Source: Candidatus Poriferihabitaceae bacterium
GTDB taxonomy: Bacteria; Pseudomonadota; Gammaproteobacteria; Arenicellales; Poriferihabitantaceae
Direction of reading: 5' to 3'
DNA length: 64,000 bases
Assembly (NCBI GenBank): GCA_965208975.1
Contig: CBDBQH010000003.1
Coordinates: 1,604,792 to 1,668,791, forward strand
Part shown: in pieces, positions 50,834-53,800 of the stretch
Numbering within the stretch: position 1 is the first letter of the stretch
Layout of the letters: every line of letters begins with the position of its first letter
The notes under the pieces: model-generated
The model's input: the letters and a program-made list of their open reading frames with translations, nothing else
Databases searched by the model: none
Told to the model about the DNA's origin: nothing
Program-made: the position numbers and the translations under genes

Positions 50834-50844
50834 GCTGTTACAAT
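50834..50844 (+). promoter_or_regulatory. Candidate extended -10 promoter element (TGtTACAAT) immediately upstream of the tetranucleotide tract
   Basis: The sequence reads tgctgTTACAAT. A TTGACA lies at 50813..50818, but the 20-nt spacer is non-optimal. Confidence 0.3.
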
Positions 50845-50846
50845 GA

Positions 50847-53800
50847 TTGCCAGCCAGCCAGCCAGCCAGCCAGCCAGCCAGCCAGCCAGCCAGCCAGCCA
50901 GCCAGCCAGCCAGCCAGCCAGCCAGCCAGCCAGCCAGCCAGCCAGCCAGCCAGCCAGGCTTCGGGCATGATCCGGCCCGAATCCCGGGATTCCTCCCGCC
51001 CGGCAACTCCTTGTCCGCCTGATTCCCCATCCGTCATTCCCGCGAAGGCGGGAATCCACAATCGCGCGGGACGGCACGCAGACCGTCCCCTACGATCCAG
51101 CCGGAGCAAAATCATTCCCCTCCCCGATCAAGCCGGGGACAGGCTCTGGAGGGGGAGTCCAATCCGTTTCACGGATTGGGTCAGGGGGCATTCCCGCCTA
51201 TGGCGGGAATCCAGTGCGGGAATCCGCCATTTCCTCTCTGCCCTGCTCCTCCTGCCGCTACTGGCCGTTCCTGCGACCGAGGTTCGGGCGCAGACTGCGC
51301 AGATCCTCTCAATCGCGGTAGAGGGGACTTTCACGTCTGCCTCGGAGGGCTCTGACGTCTATTTCTTTTTGACTTTCTCAAAAGCGCCGACGACGGGGAG
51401 CACGTATACTGTCGATATCTCGGGCGATGCGACGATAGATACGGACTACACACTGACGTGCGCCCATAGTGAGGGGTACAACACCCGGGTGTCCTGCACC
51501 AGGACGGGCAATATCCTCACCTTGACGGTCGGTACAGTGGCCAGTGGGTTCAATGGCCGTCGTGCCCAGCGGGCCATCAAGCTCACGGCCGTGAGTGACA
51601 TGGTGACCGAAGCCAGTGGTGAGATGGTGACCTTGACCGCGAACCCCTGTGGCGGCAACCCCGGCGCCTGTGGGAAGACGCTCACTATCAACGACCCGCC
51701 GACCTCCACCACGGTCACTTTCGGCTCGGCGACGTATCTGGTCCATGAAACGGCGGTTCAGAATATTGCACAACCGGTGATCGTCGTGGATCCCCCGTTC
51801 CCGCAGGCCATCACCATTCCGATTATTTACGACGACGACGACATGGATACCGCTACTTCGGGAACAGATTACGAGCCGGTTGCGTCGTATACTATTCCGG
51901 CGAATCATAGCAGAGTTAGTTTCGACATCAATATTCTCGATGATATCCACAACGAATCGGGATCGAACCAGGAGTTTTTCACGATCAAGCTGAACACTGC
52001 CATGGCAGACCCGGACGTGATCACAGTCGAGAATGACGACATCCACGAGACAAGGTTCGAGATTATAGAAGCCGTGACCGTGAACCTGGCGGGGGAGGCG
52101 GGGGAGGCGACCGAGGGGACGGACACCGGCATCAATGTGCCGGTGACGATTGTGGTGCCGGCGGAGGACTCGTTCCAATTACACTATCAGGTCACGGGGA
52201 CGGCCACCCGGGGGGCGGCGGACGCTCCCGGGACGGACGTTGTTATCCCCGAAACGGTCACGGTGGATGCCGGGGCGACCTCGGTCAACATTCCGGTGAC
52301 GATTCAGGATGATCGCCGGTACGAAGGAGAGGAGACGGTGATTCTGAGGTTGTTGGATCAACGAGATAATAATATTGGTGACTACAAGTGGCAAAAAGGG
52401 GGAACGTCGCAATATACCCTGACGATTGTGGATAATGAATCGCCGCCGCGGCGAACGCCACCCCCTGAACCGGAGCCTGAATCGGAGCCGCAACCGTCGA
52501 CCCCTGTCACCCTGTCGGTAGAAGCGGGGCAGGTCGATGAAGGACAGCCGGTGAGGGTCACGGCCACGTTGGGACAGGCATTGGACGAAGAAGTACGCAT
52601 CCCCCTGACTCTGATGGCGATCACCGCCGAAGCGCAAGACTTCGGAGCGCTGACCGAAATCGTGATACCGGCGAATCAAACAATGGGCATGGCACAACTG
52701 CCGACCTTTGCCGACAGCGACCCGGATGACGAGATCTTGTCAATTCTGCTGGATGAATCGAAGTTGCCATCCTCGCTCCGTCCCGGTCAACCCTCACAGG
52801 TAGAAGTGACGATACGGGATGTCGAACCCTTGCAGGGCGCGGTGACCGCCTGGCAGACGCGCTTTGCCCGCACCGCAGCCGGACATGTCCTGGATGGTAT
52901 CGCCGCTCGCATCTCGGCCACGCCCACGGTCGGCCTGCAAGGACAACTGGCCGGATACCGCATACACACCGGCCACACAGAAGAAAACCCATTGTTGTAT
53001 CCGCATGCGACCCACAACCCGTTCCCTGCAACCCTGCCGGATACCCGCTCCCTAACCATGCGAGAGTTCCTGTCTGCCTCGTCGATGTCGTGGAGCGGAG
53101 AATCAACAGACGGAAGCGTCACTTCTTTCTGGGCGCAAGGCGCCGGTTCCCGCTTTGACGGCAAGAGTGGCGAGTCCTCACTGGATGGAGAAGTTCTGAC
53201 CGCCCTGCTCGGACTGGATCAAACCCATACTACCGGAAGACGCGGACTGGTCTTGTCACACAGTCAAGGAGAAGGGAATTATCAGTCCCGTAGCCAGGGA
53301 CAGATCGAGTCCACCCAGACCCTGCTGACCCCGTGGCTGTCGAAGGAAATCAATGATCGAATCACCATCTGGGGAGCATTGGGTTATGGAACCGGAGAGC
53401 TCACGATCCAGCGAAACGGACGCGAAGACCTGACCACCGACACCCGCGCGGGACTGATTGCATTTGGTAGTCGTGGCGCATTGACCCCGCAAGAAGACAC
53501 AGACGGAGTCCGCCTGTCCCTGATCAGTGATGTCCTGTGGTTGAGAACCCGCGCCGATGCGGTTGCAGACGGCACGGAACTCGATGCCACTTCGGCGCAT
53601 GGTTCGAGAATGCGATTGGGTGTAGAAGGCCGTTGGAACCAGACCCGCAAGAGTGGCAGGATACAGACCCGTCTGGAGAGCGCCTTGCGTCATGACGGCG
53701 GAGACGCCGAGAGAGGTCTTGGAGTCGAAGTAGGGGGAGGGGTTCACTGGCAAGATCCGCAACGTGGACTGGATATAGAAATCCGTGGACGTACCTTGCT

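Follow-up and report, generated by a model that had tools for sequence, protein, structure and literature searches.

The 64-kb stretch of DNA analysed here (referred to below as the window) comes from the genome of a sponge symbiont, Candidatus Poriferihabitaceae bacterium, and the element of interest in it is a tetranucleotide tract at the 5' end of a gene for an autotransporter-like surface adhesin with Calx-beta repeats (protein P0001, encoded on a single 2,100,580-bp contig). The tract, (GCCA)27.25, covers 109 nt of the forward strand (50849..50957). The original prediction for this locus, made from the letters and the open reading frames (ORFs), had described an uninterrupted run of GCCA units, and Tandem Repeats Finder agrees with it (period 4, 27.2 copies, 100% matches). 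The tract is long and perfect, and its unit is not a multiple of three nucleotides. It is the only repeat counted in our census of the window, where the runners-up are three 8-nt homopolymers, and tetranucleotide tracts of at least five units were absent from the 1.26 Mb of loci (L001-L080) that were fetched with PtsI from related and unrelated bacteria.

The gene lies within an ORF of 1122 codons (50847..54215) that opens with TTG 50847, in a frame other than that of ATG 50843. These two codons share the segment 50843..50849 (forward strand), which overlaps both a -10 hexamer and the first base of the tract; the TTG is in the frame of the gene and the ATG is out of it. ATG 50843 belongs to a forward-strand open frame through the tract (50609..51022, with further ATG codons at 50609, 50612 and 50780), which ends at the stop codon 51020-51022, where the original prediction had placed it. 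This open frame shows no codon-usage signal and is not called as a protein in a collection of 15 billion sequences. The arithmetic of the prediction is also right, since ATG 50843 would come into frame with the long ORF on loss of one unit (4 nt) or gain of two (8 nt). Its length and TTG start had been given correctly for that ORF, but the statement that it is entered only from this TTG overlooked an in-frame ATG (50967..50969, forward strand), which lies 10 nt 3' of the tract and is the start of P0001 in the database (1082 aa). The three frames that leave the tract end at a TGA at 50968-70, at 51020-22, or within the gene. The first of these stops overlaps the database start (ATGA), and the start at the homologous locus L081 has an analogous GTGA; such overlaps could permit termination-reinitiation coupling or be due to chance.

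Promoter-like sites and the leader

The strict sigma-70-type pattern TTGACA-N16-21-TAnAAT has one match on the two strands of the window (chance expectation, 0.19), and this match, P2 (50813..50844, forward strand), lies immediately in front of the tract. It consists of TTGACA (50813-18), a 20-nt spacer, a TG dinucleotide (50836-37) and TACAAT (50839-44), and thereby includes the TGtTACAAT (50836..50844) that had been pointed out in the original prediction. Only 4 nt separate the end of the TACAAT hexamer (50844), which ATG 50843 overlaps, from the start of the tract. By the usual spacing of about 7 nt from the -10 hexamer, the transcription start is expected inside the first repeat units, and both ATG 50843 and TTG 50847 would be absent from the P2 mRNA. 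An additional site, P1 (50444..50473, forward strand; TTGACA-18-CATAAT), agrees with the consensus at 11 of 12 positions and is the sole site that the promoter scanner returned in 50300..51400. A transcript from P1 would contain both ATG 50609 and ATG 50843.

The tract and the signal-peptide core are separated by 264 nt (50958..51221, forward strand) that are composed of REP-type (repetitive extragenic palindromic) elements, such as CATTCCCGCGAAGGCGGGAATCC at 51035-57 and GAGGGGGAGTCCAATCCG at 51149-66. These elements recur in other stretches of the window without long ORFs, including the one directly 3' of the gene, where a cluster of the same type (54216..54535, unstranded) extends from the gene to the convergent gene of a thiamine pyrophosphate (TPP) enzyme. 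For 50967-51221, the codon-usage log-odds of the three frames are -0.15, -0.03 and -0.05 (for real genes, the median is 0.29 and the 5th percentile 0.10), and a codon-usage signal begins only at 51222 and continues onward. That this frame is open from the tract to the signal peptide was rejected as an argument for translation, since an open frame also arises in 43% of dinucleotide shuffles. Shine-Dalgarno scoring of the candidate starts proved uninformative, given that the median of the genes in the window equals the background.

In the RNA fold computed for 50849-51240, the tract pairs with itself through isolated 2-bp contacts and the stable stems are the downstream REP hairpins; this fold contains no long downstream partner complementary to (GCCA)n RNA. 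Rfam gave no match anywhere in the window. An inverted repeat without strand assignment (left arm 50726..50754, right arm 51119-51147; 29 nt, 90% complementary) brackets the promoter, the tract and ATG 50967, and a similar motif is found at about 54420-54441, 3' of the gene. More generally, small palindromic elements clustered at 229-1422, 50480-51230 and 54216-54500 have the shape of the Neisseria dRS3 element (ATTCCC-N8-GGGAAT), are often nested and bracket the adhesin gene on both sides; variants of the Neisseria or Pasteurellaceae DNA uptake sequences are not enriched in the window. A Neisseria origin, which the ATTCCC-N8-GGGAAT elements had brought to mind, was rejected on this ground, and PtsI assigns the window to Arenicellales/Poriferihabitaceae.

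Close to the signal peptide, an ATG at 51200 is one base off the frame of the gene, and GCGGGAATCC occurs there in two adjacent copies (51203-12 and 51216-25). If one copy and 3 nt were removed, ATG 51200 would lead into MAGIRHFLSALLLLPLLAVPATEVRA, cleaved before QT, which is a canonical signal peptide of 26 residues. The homologous locus L147 likewise has an out-of-frame ATG nearby, beside a duplicated CCGCGCG.

The encoded surface protein

The signal-peptide core, IRHFLSALLLLPLLAVPATEVRA, is followed by QTAQ (51222..51290, forward strand), with the cleavage site placed by eye. It aligns with the signal peptides of the paralogue P0003 and of the homologues P0007, P0009 and P0029, and it has a clear hydrophobic core and an AXA-like site before QT, but the 85 codons upstream contain no canonical start. 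The passenger region (51291..52829, forward strand) contains Calx-beta repeats (Pfam PF03160, E = 4e-7), and the family profile matches the Calx-beta domains of solved Na/Ca exchangers.

The remainder (52830..54215, forward strand) is modelled by AlphaFold2 as a linker helix and a C-terminal outer-membrane beta-barrel whose last residue is W (pLDDT 78). The model of 52830-54212 has a helix of 28 residues (residues 2-29) and then some 18-19 strand segments, compared with 12 strands in classical autotransporter barrels. When the barrel was compared with the PDB by sequence and by profile, no barrel relatives emerged, and the matches were confined to Calx-beta domains. The Foldseek matches are exclusively outer-membrane barrels, among them EstA and BrkA; the TM-scores for these two are 0.3, which is not above those of TonB-dependent receptors or BamA, and all solved barrels score 0.2-0.4. 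The precomputed annotation of P0001 includes the autotransporter domain PF03797, to which 4 of 17 members of the family match (best E = 1e-5), whereas our own Pfam scans of the protein gave no PF03797 match at E <= 1 and returned OMP_b-brl alone (E = 3e-4, below the cut-off). The word autotransporter in the original prediction is verified in part only. We regard "autotransporter-like" as a fair label, which stops short of strict membership of type Va.

Repeats at homologous loci

Besides the paralogues described further below, the nearest relatives of P0001 are only 30-37% identical to it, and several of their genes have repeats at the same position. The locus L082 (an 8.7-Mb contig, 69% G+C) reads TTGACA-N20-TATAAT-GAA-(GCCGGGTC)14.4, with a perfect repeat that begins 3 nt after the promoter match; an ATG follows 38 nt further on and opens a 22-residue n-region and a normal signal peptide. 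In L081 (65% G+C), TATAAT-TAA-(GCCGGAAC)4.5 runs into the annotated GTG start. A metagenome-assembled genome (MAG) named Nitrospira (L147) carries (GCGCTTCC)n with at least 11.6 units, broken by an assembly gap. Additionally, one metagenome contig (L141) has (GAGAGCC)4.4, located 2 nt after an AT-rich, -10-like island, another (L122) has C23, and an ENA metagenome scaffold (L083, the P0029 locus) has C9. Three long-read loci (L144, L145 and L146) have no repeat. Among the 147 loci fetched, the strict promoter pattern was found in L082 and otherwise only in nine Paenibacillus/Aneurinibacillus loci. The repeat RNA of L082 folds no better than shuffled sequences, and the ORFs upstream of the genes in the window, L081 and L082 have no similarity to each other.

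The enrichment of repeats was measured in 68 family loci (567 kb), with 26 genes whose 5' ends are complete. Seven of these 26 genes have a repeat in the 5' zone. This zone, from -450 to +50 relative to the start, makes up 2.2% of the sequence and holds 8 of the 19 repeats (binomial P = 3e-9), an enrichment that remains strong when the window itself is excluded. Judging by the sequences, the link between repeats and this family of surface proteins is not accidental, because homologues elsewhere, in genomes that span 54-69% G+C, carry different repeat units at the same position.

In L147, the octanucleotide repeat (1138-1302) is interrupted by a run of N that the short-read assembly failed to span, and for this reason such tracts are probably under-counted in short-read metagenomes. 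None of the contig ends of the short-read loci terminates in a repeat. Repeats were also seen in one locus of the PtsI set, on a Poriferihabitaceae chromosome (L015, 13260-13745), where the stretch 3' of an autotransporter-like gene (13847-17656, reverse strand) is crowded with imperfect copies of GGCTTT and GCCAAAA and also has a G10 run; of the 18 repeats counted in the 1.26 Mb, 8 come from this locus alone.

Interpretation of the tract

Given the purity of the tract and the family-wide association with repeats, the locus is probably a contingency locus, that is, a functional hypermutable switch on a surface adhesin gene. The tetranucleotide tracts of H. influenzae change in length at high frequency, with a rate that climbs with length, and a perfect tract of 109 nt would be expected to be hypermutable by slippage; its purity over 27 units also suggests ongoing turnover. 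How such changes would act on the gene is a separate matter. The proposal that we place first, to which we give about an even chance, is that the tract makes up the opening ~110 nt of the gene's transcribed leader and that changes in its length tune expression. In this mechanism, RNA polymerase would bind at TTGACA-N20-TGtTACAAT (50813-50844) and start about 7 nt past the -10 hexamer, within the first repeat units, and translation would begin 3' of the tract, at ATG 50967 or possibly closer to the signal peptide. GCCA units gained or lost in replication would then alter the length of the leader and leave the reading frame untouched, because translation would begin after the tract. The outcome would be heritable, reversible and probably graded amounts of adhesin in each lineage, as for HMW1A and UspA2. 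We prefer this leader model over a frame-based one because a promoter match lies directly 5' of the repeat and a start directly 3' of it in the window (promoter match ending at 50844, tract at 50849-50957, ATG at 50967) as well as in L081 and L082, and because the leader lacks coding signal. The original prediction had offered an extended -10 element and a tract in the 5' untranslated region (UTR) as its alternative, and for the same reasons this is now the better-supported reading. Transcription start, hypermutability and any effect on expression are all points that we infer.

Several observations weigh against the leader model. The spacer of P2, at 20 nt, is longer than optimal, and the transcription start is placed by consensus only. 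No canonical in-frame start exists between ATG 50967 and the signal peptide, and a start at ATG 50967 itself implies some 85 residues ahead of the hydrophobic core, which is unusually long. In L147, the repeat is preceded, at a distance of about 45 nt, by a Shine-Dalgarno-like GAGGG and an ATG, and the first canonical start after it (GTG 1486) is already inside the hydrophobic core of the signal peptide. The repeat units of the family (1, 4, 7 and 8 nt) are never a multiple of three, which fits a frame switch too. Finally, (GCCA)n RNA has no complementary arm, and the hairpin/RNase III route of HMW1A does not transfer to this locus; an effect of leader length through ribosome standby, or through Rho loading on the unstructured C-rich (GCCA)n, is speculation.

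The strongest rival is the ON/OFF frame switch that the original prediction had favoured, in which translation starts 5' of the tract, at ATG 50843 or, on a P1 transcript, at ATG 50609, and ribosomes read the tract as (ASQP)n. An allele of 27 units, as present here, would leave these ATGs in the OFF state, and alleles of 26 or 29 units would link them to the gene in frame. We consider this model unlikely, but it keeps a substantial minority weight because there is no good start near the signal peptide, because of the layout of L147 and because the repeat units are non-triplet. Its arithmetic is correct, P1 is a second strong promoter-like site, an AGGAA lies 7 nt upstream of ATG 50609, and the absence of a Shine-Dalgarno sequence at ATG 50843 does not count against it, since Shine-Dalgarno strength is non-discriminating here. 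As originally stated, with ATG 50843 as the start, the frame switch is nevertheless not supported: this ATG overlaps the -10 hexamer of P2, the best promoter match, and the switch would be bypassed by ATG 50967, which is in frame and lies 3' of the tract. With either upstream ATG, some 125-200 residues would precede the signal-peptide core; all frames lack coding signal before 51222, and the open frame between tract and signal peptide is no more than what the shuffles often give. Upstream ATGs are out of the frame of the gene in five of five scorable loci, and in L082, the best-resolved homologue, the repeat lies between a consensus promoter and a normal start. The better-supported part of the phase-variation reading is its general one (slippage is expected, and homologues have repeats at the same spot), and the frame switch as its mechanism is the less supported one.

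The tract could also be a neutral microsatellite, which arose by slippage and persisted, perhaps favoured by transcription from a strong promoter, with no effect on expression. Under the leader model a difference of one unit might indeed matter little, and in hmw a change of repeat number is reported to need transcription (PMC12721329), which means that repeats may gather at promoters for mechanistic reasons. Neutrality is, however, hard to reconcile with a single such tract in 64 kb and none in the PtsI loci, with different units at the same position in homologues of diverse G+C content, with the strong enrichment in the 5' zone of the family, or with a purity that argues for continuing turnover, and we judge it improbable. 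More improbable still is a coupling to upstream ORFs, in which ribosomes from ATG 50609 or ATG 50843 cross the tract and its length sets where they stop: at TGA 50968-70, allowing re-initiation at the ATGA, at 51020-22, with the start occluded (the present state), or through fusion to the gene. The three endings of the post-tract frames and the GTGA overlap at the L081 start are in line with this idea, but the transcript would have to come from P1 instead of P2, chance alone would give an ATGA overlap in 1 of 4 cases, and the upstream ORFs of the three loci are not alike. The least probable alternative, to which we assign hardly any weight, is an invertible promoter, with a recombinase flipping the 364-nt segment that carries promoter and tract between the inverted repeats. 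The 29-nt arms do stand on either side of the promoter; nevertheless, they appear to be part of the REP-type clusters, which are also present 3' of the gene (~54420-41), no recombinase is encoded among the flanking genes examined, and inversion would leave the tract unexplained.

Comparison with known systems

One of the closest documented parallels to the leader model is found in hmw1A/hmw2A of H. influenzae, where a heptanucleotide repeat, (ATCTTTC)n, lies in the transcribed 5' UTR and its number inversely tunes the level of adhesin; pairing of some 10 repeats with a G-rich arm creates an RNase III substrate, and transcription is reported to be needed for the repeat number to change (PMC12721329). 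What the two systems have in common is a long repeat of non-triplet units, placed after the promoter and ahead of the start codon; in hmw the gene encodes a type V secreted adhesin. They differ in that (GCCA)n has no complementary arm (a leader hairpin of HMW1A type, with the repeat as one arm, is absent from the fold of 50849-51240), in that the repeat follows the -10 hexamer by 4 nt and in the host, a sponge symbiont. In Moraxella catarrhalis, as summarised in PMC7302503 (citing Attia and Hansen 2006 and Lafontaine et al. 2001), uspA2 has an (AGAT)n repeat and uspA1 a poly-G run upstream of the ORF, with graded changes of mRNA. By that account, uspA2 resembles the present gene in that a tetranucleotide repeat precedes the ORF of an autotransporter or autotransporter-like adhesin, the mRNA change in uspA2 being graded rather than ON/OFF, and differs from it in unit, organism and passenger type (uspA2 encodes a trimeric autotransporter); the position relative to the transcription start may also differ.

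The frame-switched genes lic1A, lgtC and hgp of H. influenzae and modA, whose tracts use AGCC in Neisseria and Haemophilus (PMC2667262), share with this locus the AGCC/GCCA class of unit, a long perfect tract, an ATG a few bases 5' and alternative starts in two frames. Their tracts, unlike the one described here, are inside a demonstrated ORF; here the ATG falls on a -10 hexamer, an in-frame ATG lies 3' and 264 nt without coding signal follow. Finally, nadA of N. meningitidis also combines a tetranucleotide repeat with an autotransporter-type adhesin gene and is controlled at the level of transcription, but its (TAAA)n lies upstream of the -35 hexamer and alters operator spacing (PMC2791445), whereas the repeat analysed here is downstream of the -10 hexamer.

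Genomic setting and paralogues

The PtsI protein encoded just upstream is 83-92% identical to the PtsI of six chromosome-level MAGs (Arenicellales / Candidatus Poriferihabitaceae) and ~70% identical to that of Candidatus Spongiihabitans, which indicates that the window stems from a sponge-associated gammaproteobacterium whose genome is small. In the six closest genomes (L001-L006), the order lptB-ptsN-rapZ-ptsI is kept and breaks directly after ptsI, and none of the six has the adhesin gene or a tract 3' of ptsI. The break in gene order (50373-54535 of the window) is the seat of the adhesin gene and of its repeat clusters. The flanking genes in which no recombinase was found are those for PtsI, the TPP enzyme, a luciferase-like oxidoreductase, RapZ and EIIA. 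Elsewhere in the window, a 21-nt unit is repeated 3.7 times (1565-1641) within an ORF (1506-2174) that matches the Hjc resolvase family weakly.

P0001 has three paralogues in the same genome (P0061, P0002 and P0003). P0061 is identical to P0001 over residues 1-635 (50967-52871 of the window) and differs only in the barrel. Since this identity covers the N-terminal extension, the 5' region downstream of the tract has been duplicated, and the tract itself was probably duplicated along with the gene. The four barrels resemble mosaics of one another, a pattern that suggests recent duplication and gene conversion.

Implications

The arrangement met in several of these loci raises a broader proposal, namely that unrelated sponge symbionts share a switch module in which a consensus promoter is followed, after 2-4 nt, by a non-triplet repeat at the transcription start and by the gene of a Calx-beta, autotransporter-like adhesin, the repeat count setting expression through the length of the leader. 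Such a module would involve this gammaproteobacterium, the MAG named Nitrospira and the genomes of 65-69% G+C, and it would be distinct from switches based on promoter spacing, on reading frame or on a hairpin of HMW1A type. We put it forward as a tentative idea that is rather unlikely to hold in full. A practical consequence concerns annotation, as the start sites given for these genes are unreliable.

To our knowledge, contingency loci driven by repeats come almost entirely from vertebrate pathogens and commensals, in which they are explained by adaptive immunity together with pressure from phages. A literature search, within the library that was searchable, found no paper on repeat-mediated phase variation in sponge symbionts, and the present locus probably represents a known class of mechanism in an unreported host context. 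The case for extending this class to mutualists consists of the reduced 2.1-Mb genome of a sponge symbiont, the probable duplication of the tract with the gene and the different repeats found at the same position in homologues from other sponge-associated genomes. If it is true, stochastic surface variation would be extended to the mutualists of the earliest-branching animals, and, if the shared module is also true, symbionts of an animal without adaptive immunity would own phase-variable surface genes.

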